From contig CH464491.1 in the NCBI GenBank assembly GCA_000002445.1, positions 2,944,001 to 3,008,000 on the forward strand: a DNA stretch of 64,000 nt, in the 5' to 3' direction. This document shows, piece by piece, positions 18,464 to 29,275 of the stretch (position 1 is the first letter of the stretch; every line of letters starts with the position of its first letter). The notes under the pieces were generated by a model. It was not told where the DNA came from. It was given only the letters and a program-made list of their open reading frames with translations, and made no database searches. The translations under genes were made by a program, and so were the position numbers. The DNA comes from Trypanosoma brucei. Its lineage: Eukaryota.

Positions 18464-19243
18464 TGCCACCGTGTTTCTTAACCATGCTTTTTTTTAATTC
18501 TCCCCTTCCTGTCACTGTATCATTACGAACGAAGAAAAGGGGAAAGTGCCGCACATGTATTTTTATGAAATAAGAACCTATGTCATATAGCAGTAAGCCG
18601 TGGTAGCACCATGCCACGGAAATAAGTTTCACTATATGTAAGCGCTAACACACATATGCGCGCGAAAAGCAAAAAAAAAAAAAGAAAAAAAGTAGACGAG
18701 GAGAATTTTTAAAAAGGGTATATTTATTTAAGCATGTACCTAAGAGCGCACGGGCCAGACAAAGCATGAGTGCCAACACAGTTATCCGCACACACGCATC
18801 AGAAGGTACTGTTCTCCATTTTCTTCCATCAGGAAGCATGGTGTAATTATTTCTCACGAAAGTTGTACGACTAGTAGTACCCTTTTTCTCCCTTTTCTCT
18901 GTGGCTTTTTTAAAAGCTTCCTTTATTTTCTTTTTCCTTTTGAGCTAACTCTACCTCCGCAGCCGCCAGCGTTCTCAATGCAGTTTTGCGTGTAAGTCAC
19001 TTGCCTCTTGGCCAAGTAGACTCGATATGCAACACCAGGAGCGCCGCACGCATAACAATTTGCGTTTACGCGTCTACGTTAGTGTGCAGATGTTATGATA
19101 CTTTTGTTTTAACTTTGCTCCGCGTCCTTGGCGTTGGTATTGTTGCAATCTTTCATCGGCCAGTGCCTGTATATTTCAATATCCTCCTGCTTTTTATCCT
19201 TGCTACTGCCTCTGAAAACAAGGAATATCTGTCTCTTTGAAGG

Positions 19244-21274
19244 ATGACATACGAAGGCGCCATTGGTATCGACCTCGGTACGACGTACTCGTGCGTTGGT
19301 GTGTGGCAGAACGAACGTGTGGAAATCATTGCAAATGACCAGGGTAACCGTACGACGCCGTCCTACGTTGCTTTCGTCAATAATGAGGTTCTTGTTGGCG
19401 ATGCGGCGAAGAACCACGCCGCTCGTGGCTCGAATGGTGTTATATTCGACGCGAAACGGCTGATCGGACGGAAGTTCTCCGACTCTGTCGTGCAGTCCGA
19501 CATGAAGCACTGGCCCTTCAAGGTCGAGGAGGGCGAGAAAGGTGGTGCTGTGATGAGGGTAGAGCATCTTGGAGAGGGGATGTTACTGCAGCCCGAGCAA
19601 ATATCTGCCCGTGTCCTTGCGTACCTGAAGTCTTGTGCGGAGTCGTATCTTGGGAAGCAGGTGGCTAAGGCTGTCGTAACAGTGCCTGCATACTTCAACG
19701 ACTCGCAGCGCCAGGCAACGAAGGACGCGGGGACGATTGCTGGTCTGGAGGTGCTGCGCATCATCAACGAGCCAACGGCTGCTGCAATTGCCTATGGCCT
19801 GGACAAGGCTGATGAGGGGAAGGAACGCAACGTTTTGGTGTTTGACTTTGGAGGTGGAACGTTTGACGTCTCAATTATTTCAGTAAGCGGCGGTGTTTTC
19901 GAGGTGAAAGCCACAAATGGTGACACCCACCTTGGTGGAGAGGATGTGGACGCCGCACTGCTGGAGCACGCACTTGCTGATATAAGGAACCGTTATGGAA
20001 TAGAACAGGGCTCTCTGTCCCAAAAGATGCTATCCAAGCTGCGTTCACGGTGTGAGGAAGTGAAGCGAGTACTGTCACACTCGACAGTGGGGGAAATTGC
20101 ACTCGACGGGCTGCTTCCCGACGGCGAGGAATACGTGCTCAAGCTAACGCGAGCGAGGTTGGAAGAGCTATGCACGAAAATTTTTGCTCGCTGTTTGAGT
20201 GTGGTACAGAGGGCGTTGAAGGACGCTTCAATGAAGGTTGAGGATATTGAGGATGTTGTGCTTGTCGGGGGAAGTTCTCGGATTCCTGCTGTGCAGGCTC
20301 AGTTAAGGGAGCTATTCAGAGGTAAGCAACTCTGCAGCAGTGTGCACCCTGACGAGGCAGTGGCGTATGGGGCTGCAGTGCAGGCGCACGTACTTTCCGG
20401 TGGATATGGGGAGAGCTCTAGGACAGCAGGTATAGTGCTTCTGGATGTTGTGCCCCTTTCAATCGGCGTTGAAGTGGACGACGGTAAGTTTGATGTGATA
20501 ATTCGTCGGAACACAACCATTCCATACCTTGCGACCAAGGAGTACAGCACTGTGGATGACAATCAGAGTGAAGTGGAGATACAGGTTTTCGAAGGTGAGC
20601 GCCCCCTCACGCGTCACAACCACAGGCTAGGCTCCTTTGTTCTTGACGGTATTACCCCGGCAAAGCACGGTGAACCGACTATCACCGTTACTTTTAGTGT
20701 TGACGCCGACGGGATCCTGACCGTTACAGCCGCAGAAGAACTCGGGAGCGTAACAAAAACACTTGTTGTGGAGAACTCGGAGCGACTTACCAGTGAGGAA
20801 GTACAGAAGATGATTGAAGTTGCACAAAAGTTTGCCTTAACGGACGCCACCGCTCTGGCGAGGATGGAGGCCACCGAGAGGCTCACGCAGTGGTTTGACC
20901 GACTCGAAGCTGTAATGGAGACCGTCCCGCAACCATACTCAGAGAAGCTTCAAAAGCGTATTGCCTTTCTTCCGCACGGGAAAGAGTGGGTCGGCACACA
21001 GCTTCATACGTACACTGACGCGGCGTCGATAGAGGCGAAAGTAGCGAAGATTGAACGGCTTGCAAAGAGGGCCCTGAAATCGGCGCGTCGTGAAGGAAAG
21101 GATGGATGGGCACCGGGCAATGAGGACAATGGAAGCGGTGATGACAACGACGGTGACGATAACAGTGATGAGGACGACGAGCTCCAAAGGGGGAGGGGCG
21201 TGACAGAGGGATCGGGGAGGCCCCCGATAAGGAAACGCGACCGCATAGAGGCTATCAACGCAAACACAGAGTAA
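19244..21274 (+). CDS. Divergent HSP70-family chaperone (676 aa) lacking a C-terminal EEVD; acidic Asp-rich tail
   Basis: The N-terminus [44 protein letters not shown] is identical to canonical HSP70. The NBD motifs [12 protein letters not shown] and [10 protein letters not shown] are present. The substrate-binding domain and C-terminus are divergent. The gene shares blocks of 100% nucleotide identity with the canonical HSP70 gene at 27037. Confidence 0.85.
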
Positions 21275-21686
21275 GTCGTAGAGGTGTCTAACGACCCCTT
21301 TACAATAATTTTTTAGTCCAGAAGTTTCTGAAGGTACCTATGCTTTCATTAAGGCTGCTATCATTACCGCTCTGTTATTCCCCTGTTCATCCATTCGTTA
21401 TACAACTTACTTTGACGAAATGTGTGATTGTTGAGCACGTTCTCTCGTCTTTCGTGATAACATACACATAGATGCATGCACTTGTATTTGTGAATGTCGT
21501 TGTGTGTGGCCGCGGTGTGCACATCCCCGCTCTACCGCAACATAACCGTGTATGTTTTTTATAAAATGGTTGACTTGTTTACACGTCCTGCTGTGTCTTT
21601 CTCTTACCATCTGCTTCACCTCTCTTTTCTGTGTTTCCCCCTTCCTTTCATGGAAATCGCCGGTAGTTTTCATTTATTTCGTGTAA

Positions 21687-22256
21687 ATGGTGTGGAAAGG
21701 ATCACGTGAACGAGGTGTTCAGGAGTACCGAAAGAAGAGCAAGGGGAATAAGCCCACCAAGGGTGAAAAGGTGTCGAAGAAGGGAGTTTCCTCCTCACGG
21801 CAGCCGAAACAGCGGGAGTTGTTATCAGCGAAACAACAGCAGCAGCAAAACAGGAAGAACGAGGAACTACGTGCGGCACTCGCTGGTGCCTTTTCCACCG
21901 AGGTATCCAGCAGCAACGCGGGCCCAGCGTTCGATGGATATGGAAAGGGTAGTCCTACTGACCGACTGCAGTTCGGTTACGCACCTGCTGTAGCTGCGGA
22001 AGCTGTTGCATATCACAGCACTATCTCTACTGATGCGTGGATTGAGGCGCGAAGGACGCGCTACCGCACGGCAATTGTGGAGCAGAAGAAGCTACGGAGG
22101 CCGAATTGTGAACCCATAACCTCTATACTGAAACTTCAGGGGCACTGGCGGAGCACTGAACTCTTTGAGAGAGAGGTTCACGGGAGCCACGCAGTCGCGC
22201 AGGACAAGGTGGACGATATTCTTGACACATTTGTTTCACGCCAACGTGTCGCTTAG
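21687..22256 (+). CDS. Hypothetical small basic/Gln-rich protein (189 aa)
   Basis: ATG-initiated ORF following a polyY tract (21590-21650). There is no domain match and the N-terminus is low-complexity. Confidence 0.35.
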   Translation: MVWKGSRERGVQEYRKKSKGNKPTKGEKVSKKGVSSSRQPKQRELLSAKQQQQQNRKNEELRAALAGAFSTEVSSSNAGPAFDGYGKGSPTDRLQFGYAPAVAAEAVAYHSTISTDAWIEARRTRYRTAIVEQKKLRRPNCEPITSILKLQGHWRSTELFEREVHGSHAVAQDKVDDILDTFVSRQRVA

Positions 22257-22574
22257 TTTGGGTTCCTGTTTATCACCTGGATGTTCACACAGGATCAGTT
22301 AGGTGACGTATCCTTCCTCCCAATACAGGCTAAGAAAAGAAGTCTGAAGTCCGGTGAAACTGACGGTGGAAATTTCTTATTAACGCTTATTCGCGTGACT
22401 TTTGTATGCCGGTTGTGTTGAGGGACGTTGAGCCCTCCGTCGTCATTCACTCATTGATTCTACCCCAGACTGAATGTTTTCTTTCATGTTTTCACCGTTG
22501 TTTGTTGTCCGAAGTTGAGTCCAGGGAGGGGGAACACGCGGTGGTAGCGAGTCCATTAGCGAAGGCGGCAAGTT

Positions 22575-24071
22575 ATGAACTCTGAAGAATGCACGAAGCG
22601 TCGAATTGGCATGAATTTTCCCCCGGTGAAGGATCGCGACGACGTTCTCAAAGCACAGAAGGGGGCTGTCACGCAGGAGCAAATTCGTGACGGCATGCAG
22701 GATGACACCCCTCCTGTGGTCCGCAGTGTTTTGGAATTGGCGCATCTGATGATGAGTGGGCACAGTCAGAAGCTGCGTGCGGCGCCAGGGTACCAAGGAG
22801 GTCTATTTTATTCCGGAAGCCCTTTCTGTTTCGCCAGTGGTTACCGCGACGGAACTCGGCCGCGCGACATGGATGAAAAAGGTAATCACATGAAACTGAA
22901 GGATCCCCTCACGTATGGTGTTCTTTCACTGCCTATTACGGCGGCGTACCTCTGCGAGTTACACGGCACCGGTGTGTTTGACTTGCACCAGCCCCTACGA
23001 CACTATTTGCCTGAGCTTGAACACAAACTCGACGCTGAAGTAACGGCGAGGAGCATTCTCTCCTTTAGAACTGTTCTTAATGAGCAGCAAATAATGAAAG
23101 ACGCGGGAGTTGACAGGGTGCGGCCCCACGTTACACGGAACATCTGCGCTGCAACGCAGCGCTATGTGTACATGCCAATAAACTGCTTTTTTGCAGGGGG
23201 GTCATCTGCGGCGCTCAGCGGGCAGGAGCAACGTGAAAATTTTGTACAGTACTTGCGCTCGTCACCTGCCTGCACGTTTAAGAAGGTCACTACTCATCGA
23301 GCTTACCGTTGTGGCGTGTCCCATTTCTCTGTAGCCCTACTCGTGGCAGCCGTTGAGCGGCAACTGGGCGGGATCAGCTTTGAAGCCTCAATCCGGAAAG
23401 TAGTTTTCGAACCGGCTCAGAGCCACGGTGCGGGGTACGGGCCACCCAAGCTTTGGCGTGACCCCAATGAAATATTCTACCAGCCGAGTGGTCTTGCACT
23501 GCAGCATCAGGGCTTTGTCAAACCGCTCGCTGCGGGTTCACTCGACAACTGTGGGCCGCCACTTTTGAACTCATCACTGAACCTTCACGCCCCCGTAGAG
23601 GATTACGGTAAATTACTCCTCCTATCTCTTGATGCTATTAGGCACGCGCGAAAGGAATTGGGTGAATTCGACTCTAACTCGGGGGCTATACCTTCGTACC
23701 CACATTACGACTTTGGCGTTGAGTGGTTGGACACTGGACGCAGACTTCAACTCACCCGACGAGTTTTGGGTATTGATTATATACCAACTGCATCGTCGTT
23801 CCGCTACAACTGCGAACACGACTTGGGTTGTTTTGGTATATGTAACTGTGGCACACGCGATGCATGTCTTCTTGGAAACACCATCTCGCGCGTCATCCAG
23901 CATCTTTTTGTAAAACACATCATTGAAAAGGGTGTCAACCCGATGAAGGGACCAAACCTCGACAACCCCAACGAAGGGGAAAGTGAAACGGAGCTGAAGT
24001 TCCGGAAGGTAGTAGACGAGCAGAAGTACACAAGTGTCTTCAAGAAACACGATGCGCATACACGATTTTAA
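22575..24071 (+). CDS. Beta-lactamase/serine-hydrolase-like protein (PF00144-like fold) with degenerate S-x-x-K motif
   Basis: The region PGYQGGLFYSGSPFCFASGY...MKLKDPLTYGVLSLPITAAYLCELHGTGVFDLHQPLRHYLPEL matches the class-C beta-lactamase/EstB N-terminal pattern (...iaSvtKtfTaaa..L.e.G.l.Ld.pv..yLPe). At the motif position the sequence reads SLPI, so the catalytic Lys is absent. This rests on unaided pattern recognition. Confidence 0.45.
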   Translation: MNSEECTKRRIGMNFPPVKDRDDVLKAQKGAVTQEQIRDGMQDDTPPVVRSVLELAHLMMSGHSQKLRAAPGYQGGLFYSGSPFCFASGYRDGTRPRDMDEKGNHMKLKDPLTYGVLSLPITAAYLCELHGTGVFDLHQPLRHYLPELEHKLDAEVTARSILSFRTVLNEQQIMKDAGVDRVRPHVTRNICAATQRYVYMPINCFFAGGSSAALSGQEQRENFVQYLRSSPACTFKKVTTHRAYRCGVSHFSVALLVAAVERQLGGISFEASIRKVVFEPAQSHGAGYGPPKLWRDPNEIFYQPSGLALQHQGFVKPLAAGSLDNCGPPLLNSSLNLHAPVEDYGKLLLLSLDAIRHARKELGEFDSNSGAIPSYPHYDFGVEWLDTGRRLQLTRRVLGIDYIPTASSFRYNCEHDLGCFGICNCGTRDACLLGNTISRVIQHLFVKHIIEKGVNPMKGPNLDNPNEGESETELKFRKVVDEQKYTSVFKKHDAHTRF

Positions 24072-24872
24072 TATTGTTACCCTGATCAGTTATAGGGAGC
24101 AGCGACGAAAGCAGGGGTAACGAGCTCAATTTCATTTTCGTGAGGCCTCTTTCCTCGTATGCCCAAATGAGCAGACACTGAAGAATGGTGTCTATTCCTT
24201 AGTTATAGCGTATCTGGGGGCTATAGTTTACTTTTACTGCGGCTGTGGTGGAACTGACAGCAGCCACGCTTATCCACACTATGCCCTTTTTTTTTCAGCG
24301 TGTAAGATGGAAAGAGATGCAACGGTAACGGATATCTCCACTGCCCTTTATCGTTTCAACATTACGTTTTGTATCCTTTTCTTTGTGTCAACTCCCCCTC
24401 TTTTCTTCCCATCGTTTGTAGCCGCCTTCCCTTTCATCTGAAGCTCTTATTTGAATGTCTGCGCGGAGACGCTGTGTATGACACCGCTCATCTGCAAAGT
24501 GGCGCGTTGCCCCTGAGGTTGTGGTGAGGTGTGCGGAGGTTTCGGGGTACTTGTGTAAGTCTGTATGCAGGTGTTGATACTGTAATCGCAAGGAGCCTGT
24601 GCGGAGCCGGTGGTGGCGGTGTTGAACGCATCAGTGGATGTGTTTCGCTTCTTTAACAGCCATCACAAGAATGGCTCATTGTCCTCTTTGTTACGACGGA
24701 ATGGTTAACCTGGCTGTCACCCCGTAATAATGGAGGTGGGATGTTGTTAACCTTTTGTTTTCACGGTGTCAAATGCTTCACCGTGCTATCGTTCTCAACT
24801 GGTCGTATCTCCTACGAAATTCTTCGCCAAACCACTGTGGTTGTGGCAATCTTCCTTGCACCTCGCGGCGCA

Positions 24873-24899
24873 TGTGTGTGAGTGTGTGTGTGTGTGTGT
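24873..24899. repeat. (TG)n microsatellite
   Basis: tgtgtgtgagtgtgtgtgtgtgtgtg, read directly. Smaller (TG)n runs lie at 11546-11561 and 63471-63490. Confidence 0.8.
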
Positions 24900-25552
24900 T
24901 AGCACTCCACTGAGATGGCATTCGTGCCTGACTATCCGTCTGTTTGCACTGCCACTCGCGTGATTGTCAGCACAGCTTCGGGTTATCATGTGTTTTCTCG
25001 GTAGTGTGCAGTGTCCGAACTGGAGGCTGAAGAAAAAGATCAGCAAGGAACCAACTCTGTTCGGTGGGCGTCTAGTACTTTTTTCTCCTGTCTTAGTATT
25101 TGTTTCCGTTGTCATCACGTATGCTTGCACGTTTTAACCCCACCTTTTTGGTCGTCGTCGCCGTATGTCTGCAGGAAGTATCATTCTACAGCTTGCGGTA
25201 CGAAGAAACAGTTGGGGACACTGACCACTGGTTTAACGTGTAAGCTGGCCCTTTCTCTTTCATCAGTTGTGTTTCGTCAAAAACATTTATTACCCCCACT
25301 TCTTCACGCAACCGTCTTCGTTGCTGTATCTGCTAATATCGTTATTATTATTTTGCGTGAGGGAGTGGGACGTTTCGCTGCCCGTTCCCCCTTTTCCCTT
25401 TCCTACCACACGGAGCGAATGGTCTGTGGAGCGTGTGCACAGAACAATAATTTTAGCGGCGGTCACTTTTCACATAGAAAAATAGGCAACGGAAGAACAA
25501 AGTAAGGCGAAGCGACGGGAGAACGACGAAAAAAAACAAGAGGATAATAGAC

Positions 25553-26353
25553 ATGACGAGGAAAGTGGCCGGTGATATGTGGGACTCACGAGTAGAGGCA
25601 TCACTCCCTGCACTGAACTACCTCCGTACGGCACAACAATTGCAAAAGAAGGCGGACGAGTTAAGTCGCGCACAAGAGAGAGTACATAGGTTGCAAGAGG
25701 ACAACTCAGCACTACTGCTAGAGAATGAACTGCTTAAAAGAGAGCGTGACGCACTCCTTTGCAAAGTACAATTCTTAGAGTTAAACGAACACGGGCACTG
25801 CACAACAAATGATATAGTTGGACCCTGGGGAAATGTGAGATCCGTGCCCGCCGGCGGTCTTGGGAGCACCACAGGCGGTGATCTTTCGCCGGTGTTCAAA
25901 GATAATGTTAATAAAGCAAGTGAAACTCGTGTGAACATAAGTGAACAAGCCAGGACGCACACGAATAGCGAGCAGCAAGACCTTCATAATCCAAAGGAAG
26001 AAACAATATTGTGCCCTCTCTCAGCATCGTCAGAAACGTTAATTAACACCAACCGGCCAGATGCAAACATAGAAACATTCCATCGTAGCACAGAGTCTCA
26101 TGTGGAGTACTGCGCGAATGGTGAGTGTCGGTCACCTATCAGCATGACGAGAACCACACAGACCGTCGCTTACGAGCGTCGTGTTCCCTCTGTTGAGCGC
26201 GGCACCATGACAACAATGAACATTTACATTTGCTCGTACCAATCTTTGCCATCGAAAGCCGGTGCTTTTTTCGAGGTACCACTAAGCAACGTAGAAACGG
26301 CGATTCACCACGACCCCGAAAGTCTCACTAGCATCACAATCCCTCGCAGTTGA
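25553..26353 (+). CDS. Hypothetical protein (266 aa) with N-terminal coiled-coil
   Basis: ATG ORF on the unit strand. A leucine-heptad stretch is present (LQKKADELSRAQERVHRLQEDNSALLLENELLKRERDALL). No domain was recognised. Confidence 0.4.
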   Translation: MTRKVAGDMWDSRVEASLPALNYLRTAQQLQKKADELSRAQERVHRLQEDNSALLLENELLKRERDALLCKVQFLELNEHGHCTTNDIVGPWGNVRSVPAGGLGSTTGGDLSPVFKDNVNKASETRVNISEQARTHTNSEQQDLHNPKEETILCPLSASSETLINTNRPDANIETFHRSTESHVEYCANGECRSPISMTRTTQTVAYERRVPSVERGTMTTMNIYICSYQSLPSKAGAFFEVPLSNVETAIHHDPESLTSITIPRS

Positions 26354-27036
26354 TGAGAATGAGATGAAGAAAGACAAGACGCAAAAACCGTCTCCATATA
26401 ATAAACATAACAGTACCTTCTAGAACATGTGAAGAGAGGGACACGCTACTTCAAGGGGTGCTGCGTTATTGTTTAGCAGACCCAATACCATGACGATAGG
26501 ACATCACGATAACCTTGAAACAAAACTTAACCGACGACCTGTATAACAGCACACAATTAAAATGCAAAAAATAATCGGGACGACTGTCACTGCTGTACAG
26601 TGCGAAACATCACTTAAACAACACCTTTTGCAACCCATAAAGTAGGAACAGAGCAGTAAATGCGAAAGTACCATTAAAACATTACAAAAAACACTTTGGC
26701 AAGCAGATACTCGTTTACCTCGCAGGTTTAACGGGGAAATTTCAAAAGAAAAAAATTCCAGCGGTAAAAAAGGAAAAATAAATAAACACTGAAATCATAA
26801 TAAACCAAAAAAACTGAAAAAATAAAATTATCTCAACGAACAAAAAAGGATTAATTAATAAACACAAATTTTCCTTCGAATTGCAATACCTCCCCAGAAA
26901 GGATTGCGTACTCCCATACTTGCACTCCTGCTCTTCCTTCCTATTTGCATTTGCCCACGTGCCCCACGCGTGCATCACATAAGCATCAAGGAACAAGCAA
27001 CAGCTATAAAACAAGGAATATCTGCCTCTTTGAAGG

Positions 27037-29021
27037 ATGACATACGAAGGCGCCATTGGTATCGACCTCGGTACGACGTACTCGTGCGTTGGTGTGTGGC
27101 AGAACGAACGTGTGGAAATCATTGCAAATGACCAGGGTAACCGTACGACGCCGTCCTACGTTGCCTTCACGGACTCTGAGCGCCTGATCGGCGATGCGGC
27201 GAAGAACCAGGTGGCGATGAACCCTACGAACACGGTGTTCGACGCGAAACGGCTGATCGGACGGAAGTTCTCCGACTCTGTCGTGCAGTCCGACATGAAG
27301 CACTGGCCCTTCAAGGTCGTCACCAAGGGCGACGACAAGCCAGTGATCCAGGTACAGTTCCGCGGTGAGACGAAAACCTTCAATCCTGAGGAGATCAGTT
27401 CCATGGTACTATTGAAGATGAAGGAGGTTGCGGAGTCGTATCTTGGGAAGCAGGTGGCTAAGGCTGTCGTAACAGTGCCTGCATACTTCAACGACTCGCA
27501 GCGCCAGGCAACGAAGGACGCGGGGACGATTGCTGGTCTGGAGGTGCTGCGCATCATCAACGAGCCAACGGCTGCTGCAATTGCCTATGGCCTGGACAAG
27601 GCTGATGAGGGGAAGGAACGCAACGTGCTCATCTTCGATCTTGGTGGTGGCACCTTCGATGTGACATTGCTGACGATTGACGGCGGCATCTTCGAGGTGA
27701 AAGCCACAAATGGTGACACCCACCTTGGTGGAGAAGACTTCGACAATCGCCTTGTGGCTCACTTTACCGAGGAATTCAAGCGCAAGAACAAGGGCAAGGA
27801 TCTCTCATCGAACTTGCGCGCCCTTCGCCGCCTTCGTACGGCTTGTGAGCGCGCCAAGCGCACACTTTCTTCCGCTGCGCAGGCAACCATCGAGATCGAT
27901 GCACTCTTCGAAAACATTGACTTCCAGGCGACCATTACCCGTGCTCGTTTCGAGGAACTGTGCGGTGACCTGTTCCGTGGTACATTGCAACCCGTAGAGC
28001 GTGTGCTGCAGGATGCCAAGATGGACAAACGCGCCGTGCACGATGTGGTCCTGGTTGGTGGTTCCACCCGTATCCCCAAGGTGATGCAGCTTGTGTCTGA
28101 CTTTTTCGGTGGCAAGGAGCTTAACAAGAGCATCAACCCCGACGAGGCAGTGGCCTACGGCGCTGCTGTACAAGCTTTCATCTTGACCGGTGGTAAGAGC
28201 AAGCAAACGGAAGGTCTCCTCCTTCTGGATGTCGCCCCGCTTACGCTCGGCATCGAGACGGCAGGTGGCGTGATGACGGCACTGATCAAGCGCAACACGA
28301 CGATCCCCACCAAAAAGAGCCAAATCTTCTCCACATACTCAGACAATCAGCCCGGTGTGCACATTCAGGTCTTTGAGGGTGAGCGTACCATGACGAAGGA
28401 CTGCCATCTCTTGGGCACCTTCGATCTCTCTGGAATCCCCCCGGCACCCCGCGGCGTGCCACAGATAGAAGTGACCTTCGACCTAGACGCTAATGGTATT
28501 CTTAGCGTTTCTGCGGAGGAGAAGGGCACTGGCAAGCGCAACCAGATTGTCATCACAAACGACAAGGGTCGCCTGAGCAAGGCTGATATCGAACGCATGG
28601 TGTCTGATGCTGCGAAGTATGAGGCTGAGGATAAGGCGCAGCGTGAGCGCATTGATGCTAAGAACGGTCTTGAGAACTACGCCTTCTCGATGAAGAACAC
28701 TATCAATGACCCCAACGTTGCTGGCAAGCTTGACGACGCCGACAAGAACGCTGTCACCACTGCCGTGGAGGAGGCACTGCGATGGCTGAACGACAACCAG
28801 GAGGCCAGTTTGGATGAATACAACCACCGCCAGAAGGAGCTCGAAGGCGTGTGTGCTCCCATCTTATCAAAGATGTACCAGGGCATGGGCGGTGGCGACG
28901 CGGCTGGCGGTATGCCCGGAGGTATGCCCGGGGTATGCCCGGTGGTATGCCCGGAGGAATGGGTGGTGGGATGGGAGGCGCTGCGGCATCGTCCGGGCCT
29001 AAAGTCGAGGAGGTTGACTAA
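27037..29021 (+). CDS. HSP70: Canonical cytosolic HSP70 (ends ...[22 protein letters not shown]) with an apparent -1 frameshift inside the GGMP repeat at ~28933
   Basis: Full HSP70 motifs are present ([26 protein letters not shown]). In the annotated frame the GGMP repeat reads ggtatgcccgga ggtatgcccggg gtatgcccggt, so one G is missing. The track ORF therefore reads through to 29109 (...[15 protein letters not shown]...). The +1 frame instead gives [26 protein letters not shown], with the stop at 29019-29021. Confidence 0.85.
28909..28965 (+). repeat. 12-nt GGMP-coding tandem repeat (ggtatgcccgga)n at the HSP70 C-terminus
   Basis: About 4.5 units can be read directly; one unit has lost a G. 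Confidence 0.8.
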
Positions 29022-29140
29022 GTTCCCAGGTGTATTTCGGACCGGTGCTGCAGTCGTCTCATTGTCTACGGTGATGGTCCGCCGCCACATTTTCTCTTCG
29101 TCTCTGTAGCATTTAGGAACCCTCGTTACGGGAAAGATGC

Positions 29141-29275
29141 GTGACACATTGATGCTACTACTATTATTAATACTCTACTACTATTATTATTATTTTTATT
29201 TTAGTTCCCCACCACCGTCATTATTATTACCATTATTATTATCAATATTACCATTATTGTTTTTAATGTAATCAT
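29141..29275 (+). repeat. AT-rich triplet microsatellite block (tactattatt / cattattatt units)
   Basis: ctactattattaatactctactactattattattatttttattttag...cattattattaccattattattatcaatattaccattattg, read directly upstream of the GCP gene. Confidence 0.7.

Follow-up and report, generated by a model that had tools for sequence, protein, structure and literature searches.

How two genes of one family can be identical, nucleotide for nucleotide, over some segments and yet only about 50% identical over the segments between them is the question raised by a pair of HSP70 paralogues on chromosome 11 of Trypanosoma brucei brucei TREU927. The window analysed here, a stretch of 64,000 nucleotides (nt) of contig CH464491.1, holds the two genes, HSP70.c and the canonical cytosolic HSP70, which are offset by a constant 7,793 nt. 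Our answer is that HSP70.c very probably received four short tracts from HSP70 by interlocus gene conversion, and that the result is an old mosaic, recently re-homogenised by a process that is probably continuing. The two paralogues are the following.

19244..21274, + strand: HSP70.c ("cognate hsp70", Tb11.01.3080), open reading frame (ORF) of 676 amino acids (aa), Pfam HSP70 E = 2.6e-227, acceptor in the proposed conversion
27037..29109, + strand: canonical cytosolic HSP70 (Tb927.11.11330), ORF, Pfam E = 3.7e-260, donor in the proposed conversion

Identical blocks in diverged genes

Ungapped comparison of the paralogues at this offset bore out what the initial annotation had described, namely perfectly identical blocks separated by diverged sequence, and the block sizes and sequences it gave were right to within a few nucleotides. 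The shared segments are listed below.

19215..19371, + strand: block 1 in HSP70.c, 157 nt, made up of 29 nt upstream of the ATG and codons 1-43, with a mismatch at 19232
27008..27164, + strand: block 1 in HSP70
19397..19416, + strand: identical 20-nt run (GDAAKN) in HSP70.c, matching HSP70 27190-27209
19445..19526, + strand: block 2 in HSP70.c, 82 nt, codons 68-94
27238..27319, + strand: block 2 in HSP70
19636..19833, + strand: block 3 in HSP70.c, 198 nt, codons 132-197
27429..27626, + strand: block 3 in HSP70
19898..19941, + strand: block 4 in HSP70.c, 44 nt, codons 219-233
27691..27734, + strand: block 4 in HSP70

The blocks span -29 to +698, with eight junctions within 730 nt. Block 1 consists of two exact runs, 19215-19231 (17 nt) and 19233-19371 (139 nt), parted by a single T/C mismatch (19232, i.e. 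position -11) that is present in TREU927 and T. equiperdum OVI only, the 157 nt being perfect in the other strains. Upstream of 19215 the sequences of the paralogues are unrelated, the segments between the blocks are ~50% identical, and downstream of codon 233 the two genes share no exact run of 15 nt or longer. Elsewhere among the strains the 20-nt run at 19397-19416 measures 16 nt, and chance or a remnant could account for it. In terms of Hsp70 structure, block 1 presumably covers the phosphate-1 loop and block 2 the region of the catalytic Lys71; block 3 is presumably the subdomain-IA core (TVPAYFND...) facing the J-domain and the interdomain linker, and block 4 the IIA/IIB junction.

As had also been claimed, the identity includes 5' non-coding sequence: block 1 begins 29 nt upstream of the ATG, and identity that reaches into non-coding sequence is a mark of gene conversion. 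This shared segment contains an AG at 19221-19222 in HSP70.c and at 27014-27015 in HSP70. It is the first AG past the pyrimidine-rich tract in HSP70.c and the fifth in HSP70, where four others intervene, and the splice site that the initial annotation counted as part of the converted sequence is a candidate only. The HSP70.c 3' region (21275-21686) has no (ATT)n repeats, so conversion does not reach the 3' regulatory sequence. Repeats of this kind are present in the HSP70 3' untranslated region (29175-29261). For ATTATTATT, 0.3 copies would be expected over the window and 12 are present, four of them in this stretch. The repeats presumably resemble the AUU-repeat elements described for the stabilisation of heat-shock mRNA.

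Synonymous divergence and clustering of identical sites

The Nei-Gojobori method gave no synonymous difference in the four blocks, over 29.3, 17.7, 48.7 and 10.0 synonymous sites, respectively (~106 synonymous sites), whereas the proportion of synonymous differences (pS) was 0.65, 0.67 and 0.87 in the segments between the blocks and 0.78-0.80 downstream. This block-by-block estimate agrees with the earlier statement that synonymous sites are identical inside the blocks and saturated outside them (0 versus pS 0.65-0.87), and such tracts with essentially no synonymous divergence, set in diverged flanks, are what gene conversion would leave. The identical sites are also clustered beyond chance, which is a further mark of the process. 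The four longest runs add up to 452 nt, and none of 20,000 codon shuffles gave more than 190 nt; with only those codons counted that encode the same amino acid, the runs add up to 151 codons and the shuffles reached 122 at most.

Protein conservation alone does not explain this nucleotide identity, since the segment 197-218, a control that contains the conserved phosphate-2 motif and lies between blocks 3 and 4, has a third-position identity of only 23% in spite of a low nonsynonymous divergence (dN, 0.33). The initial annotation had argued that purifying selection alone would be insufficient, and the same segment sustains that argument.

Direction of transfer and comparison with outgroups

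We made a codon alignment that included the syntenic HSP70.c/HSP70 pairs from T. cruzi and L. infantum. In the blocks, T. brucei HSP70.c showed higher identity to the HSP70 of T. cruzi and L. infantum (82 and 85%, respectively) than to the HSP70.c of the same species (only 63 and 67%, respectively). Between the blocks its identity was 64% to the HSP70.c of T. cruzi, 56% to that of L. infantum and ~47% to any HSP70. The relationships thus conflict in the way expected of gene conversion, the tracts grouping by species and the flanks by gene. Diagnostic residues, defined as those separating canonical HSP70 from HSP70.c with T. brucei excluded from the reference set, gave the same picture: T. brucei HSP70.c has 30 HSP70-type and no HSP70.c-type residues in the blocks, 3 and 25, respectively, between them, and 18 and 140 in the remainder. 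HSP70 is the donor and HSP70.c the acceptor, because the blocks are HSP70-like and the intervening segments HSP70.c-like by both the identities and the diagnostic residues. The 4-5-residue insertion after 'YGLG', present in every other HSP70.c, is gone from T. brucei HSP70.c, having been removed by the conversions.

No such blocks were found in the T. cruzi paralogue pair, in which the longest exact runs are 19-23 nt, or in the L. infantum pair, with 67-82% identity in the block regions, and all non-salivarian HSP70.c proteins begin with the HSP70.c-type MEEFDG... and not with the canonical MTYEGAIG.... The pattern is therefore lineage-specific and missing from the same paralogue pair in outgroups, which again speaks for gene conversion. 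For T. theileri there was no pair of paralogues to compare, because its assembly lacks an HSP70 in the interval from HSP70.c to the GCP gene, and the comparison with T. melophagium is weak, only a partial HSP70 being within the compared locus.

Outside the blocks, small clusters of HSP70-type diagnostic residues are seen at HSP70.c residues 259-260, 350-351 and 386-387 (~20018-20404). They are common to T. brucei and T. congolense HSP70.c, and could be older decayed conversion tracts, or chance.

Strains, T. congolense and the age of the mosaic

T. b. gambiense DAL972 and T. b. equiperdum IVM-t1 (both array copies) carry the same blocks with the same boundaries. The HSP70.c of T. equiperdum OVI equals the window gene at every variable site compared, the OVI contig being without an HSP70 copy, and the SwissProt sequence HSP7C_TRYBB also carries the N-terminal mosaic. 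The differences among strains are specific to individual blocks: in gambiense, block 2 has two mismatches between the paralogues and blocks 1, 3 and 4 are perfect. At the synonymous site +216 in block 2, HSP70.c and HSP70 read G/G in TREU927, A/A in IVM-t1 (both copies) and G/A in gambiense, whose HSP70 also has a private change at +231. Continuing exchange would be expected to leave the same polymorphism in the two paralogues, and the +216 site suggests that conversion is probably continuing in T. brucei.

In T. congolense the HSP70.c protein (P0005) likewise carries the four HSP70-type patches, bounded as in T. brucei (30 HSP70-type and no HSP70.c-type diagnostic residues) and HSP70.c-type sequence between them. 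Since the patches are shared at the protein level, the mosaic most likely predates the split of T. brucei and T. congolense, and an old mosaic with zero synonymous divergence in T. brucei would require later re-homogenisation. The comparison with related trypanosomes that had been proposed at the outset gave both results, i.e. blocks missing in T. cruzi and L. infantum, and boundaries in T. congolense that are the same at the protein level. A canonical T. congolense HSP70 was not found in the second of the protein searches or in the protein cluster listings. In residues 68-94 of T. congolense HSP70.c (patch 2), R75H and S79E are seen relative to the canonical HSP70 of T. brucei and T. cruzi, which hints that block 2 may not be currently homogenised in T. 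congolense.

Mechanism and alternative explanations

In the proposed mechanism, non-reciprocal homologous recombination would have copied the 157-, 82-, 198- and 44-nt tracts from the HSP70 array into HSP70.c, and the segments between the tracts would retain ancestral HSP70.c sequence. Once identical, a patch would be preferred as substrate when conversion recurs, the intervening sequence of ~50% identity might stop the extension of the heteroduplex, and selection may keep those HSP70.c-specific segments that are well conserved among HSP70.c orthologues. The short-tract patchwork conversion put forward in the initial annotation is favoured by the alternating synonymous divergence, the conflicting relationships, the outgroups without blocks, the upstream identity and the agreement of several assemblies. 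We give about an even chance to a more specific form of it, in which the mosaic predates the T. brucei/T. congolense split and has been maintained since by continuing HSP70-to-HSP70.c conversion in four self-sustaining 'homology islands'. The identity of each island would invite further conversion, and divergence together with selection would protect the HSP70.c-specific segments.

Some points weigh against repeated conversion as we read it. The recombination event was deduced from sequence and not seen directly. The +216 pattern is one site in three strains, and could have arisen by parallel mutation or, less likely, as a polishing artefact. The HSP70 sequences of TREU927 and gambiense are each a collapsed consensus of several array copies, and the T. 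congolense evidence, being at the protein level only, is silent on concerted evolution in that species.

All four patches might instead have been made at once, by one conversion event, ancient or recent, in which a single heteroduplex from -29 to +698 underwent patchy mismatch repair. This has some claim to attention, given that the four patches lie within about 730 nt in one fixed register and that T. congolense has all four boundaries at the protein level, which fits one founding event. However, a single event older than the T. brucei/T. congolense split cannot yield 0 differences at ~106 synonymous sites, so at least one later round must have followed any old founding event, and the strain differences are block-specific (the two gambiense mismatches in block 2, and position -11 in TREU927 and OVI only). 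We therefore regard a single event as possible but distinctly less probable than repeated conversion.

An artefact of assembly or polishing, in which reads from the HSP70 array would have been drawn to HSP70.c and replaced its homologous segments, is very improbable, even though TREU927 (PMC11858757) and gambiense (N run in its copy) both have a collapsed array and the TREU927 HSP70 copy has a probable 1-nt error. The mosaic is present in four independent assemblies (TREU927, DAL972, OVI and IVM-t1, the last of which resolves array copies), in HSP7C_TRYBB, which was entered separately from the genome assemblies, and in the T. congolense protein. Moreover, the flanks of the blocks are ~50% identical, so that reads of at least 100 nt would not mis-map. 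An assembly chimera, which the initial annotation had named beforehand as what would overturn its interpretation, is thus rejected on the occurrence of the same blocks in several assemblies and in the SwissProt sequence.

Selection at the nucleotide level, through codon usage, mRNA structure or a regulatory element that keeps the blocks identical without exchange of DNA, has hardly any probability left. The blocks do coincide with conserved ATPase motifs, and codon bias would be plausible for a highly expressed HSP70. However, the T. brucei and T. cruzi HSP70 orthologues match at only 51% of third positions in the blocks, the conserved segment between blocks 3 and 4 shows the low third-position identity given above (23%), the HSP70.c blocks have lost lineage-specific residues along with the 4-5-aa insertion of all other HSP70.c orthologues, and single-nucleotide polymorphisms do arise within the blocks. 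It is on these comparisons between orthologues that the explanation was rejected. A single unequal crossover was rejected outright, since it would leave one junction and not eight.

The HSP70 copy in the window

The window ORF of HSP70 matches RefSeq XP_829198.1 ('heat shock protein 70', TREU927, 690 aa). In the GGMP repeat of its coding sequence, one T is missing between 28931 and 28932 in comparison with both 661-aa copies of IVM-t1, and the resulting frameshift swaps the EEVD-bearing C-terminus, whose stop would end at 29021, for about 56 unrelated residues. The end of the gene had been placed at 29021 in the initial annotation, but owing to this 1-nt deletion the ORF in the window ends at 29109. 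The frameshifted 690-aa product is the RefSeq TREU927 protein, and one T. evansi entry has equal length. Canonical HSP70 is recognised by GGMP repeats and a terminal EEVD; in the window the frameshift removes the EEVD and the gene is otherwise canonical. The missing T probably reflects an error that the collapsed array has passed on, or else a genuine single-copy variant without EEVD.

HSP70 forms a tandem array of about eight genes that is collapsed to one in the Tb927 assembly (PMC11858757), and at least two separate array copies are present in the IVM-t1 (T. b. equiperdum) assembly. A look-up of the product of the GCP gene downstream, meant to lead to more copies of the array, gave no exact match. 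In DAL972 (T. b. gambiense), HSP70 is one gene model annotated at 572 aa, with an N run from codon 242 (L002 18518 onward), a further sign of a collapsed or gapped array in the reference assemblies.

HSP70.c and the surrounding genes

HSP70.c is a single-copy gene 5.8 kb upstream of the HSP70 array. Its old gene identifier (Tb11.01.3080), its current name and the features of its family are given in PMC3953656. The window protein is identical to a Trypanozoon protein (P0002) and differs from SwissProt HSP7C_TRYBB ('Heat shock cognate HSP70 protein') at 4 of its 676 residues. It ends in ...EAINANTE and has no EEVD motif, as is characteristic of kinetoplastid HSP70.c, and a protein search with its C-terminal half ranked HSP70.c orthologues first. 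The gene order is kept in T. b. gambiense, T. equiperdum, T. cruzi, T. theileri, T. melophagium and L. infantum. In TREU927 the paralogues are separated as follows.

21687..26353, + strand: three unrelated genes, of 189 aa, 498 aa (weak beta-lactamase-like) and 266 aa

The window comparison found no repeats common to either HSP70 paralogue and these three genes. In T. cruzi, T. theileri and T. melophagium a DUF2804 gene is present between the beta-lactamase-like gene and the next gene. The regions compared were the following.

L004 15099-18573, L005 15445-19130 and L006 15379-16635: DUF2804 comparison regions, set against window 24072-26353

A tblastn search of the whole window gave no match to DUF2804, and the 266-aa ORF (25553-26353) aligns with the first 51 residues only of the syntenic 597-aa T. 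cruzi protein. Taken together, the lack of a DUF2804 match in the window and the 51-residue match suggest that T. brucei may have lost DUF2804 and that the gene of the 266-aa ORF may be truncated.

Significance and comparison with known systems

Subdomain IA is the surface toward the J-protein and the interdomain linker. If the homology-island interpretation is true, the phosphate-1, catalytic-lysine and subdomain-IA surfaces of the salivarian HSP70.c ATPase would be tied to those of HSP70, and these tied surfaces may explain why the co-chaperone Tbj2 is common to HSP70.c and HSP70. There are also practical consequences. Primers, RNA interference fragments, tagging constructs, peptides and antibodies for TbHsp70.c should be designed with caution, given ~480 nt of the 5' end identical to HSP70, and the HSP70-derived patches confound any phylogeny or argument from conservation that draws on the TbHsp70.c ATPase domain. 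Short-tract interlocus conversion between paralogues of distinct function is seen here in clean, textbook form.

The gene for which such conversion was described in 1990 is presumably the HSP70.c of this window, to judge by the name that SwissProt gives the protein, 'Heat shock cognate HSP70 protein'. Going by the title of that report on the T. brucei hsp70 genes, which states this conclusion (Lee, Polvere & Van der Ploeg 1990, cited in PMC1855330 and PMC11858757), conversion between HSP70 and HSP70.c is already known, and it is not the fresh inference that the initial annotation made of it. Among the papers that were searched, none joins 'Hsp70.c' with 'gene conversion', and the functional TbHsp70.c papers checked (e.g. 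PMC3953656) make no mention of conversion. The 1990 study shares with ours the species, the gene family and, by its title, the phenomenon, and the present work adds comparative data, of which the protein-level mosaic in T. congolense and the polymorphism in both paralogues are small increments.

T. brucei offers related precedents in its chimeric PGK gene and in its hexose transporters (PMC1855330). PGK-B (Le Blancq et al. 1988, as summarised in PMC1855330) is likewise a chimera from conversion between neighbouring, functionally distinct T. brucei paralogues. However, by that summary PGK is a contiguous three-gene array in which the chimera blends the first and third copies, whereas the HSP70 pair has three unrelated genes between its members and eight alternating junctions within 730 nt. 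The concerted evolution of T. brucei tandem arrays (Jackson 2007, PMC1855330) and the gene conversion of Hsp70 genes in mammals and nematodes (Kudla 2004; Nikolaidis & Nei 2004, as cited in PMC1855330) show the same homogenisation independent of codon position, with species that go on diverging. In those arrays and Hsp70 genes whole repeat units are homogenised, while in HSP70.c, a paralogue outside the array, only four islands are. Finally, the formation of mosaic variant surface glycoprotein (VSG) genes (PMC3708902) likewise proceeds by short-tract conversion between diverged T. brucei paralogues. VSG mosaics, however, are somatic, arise during infection and are selected by host immunity, whereas the HSP70.c mosaic is fixed in the germline and common to the Trypanozoon strains and T. 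congolense.

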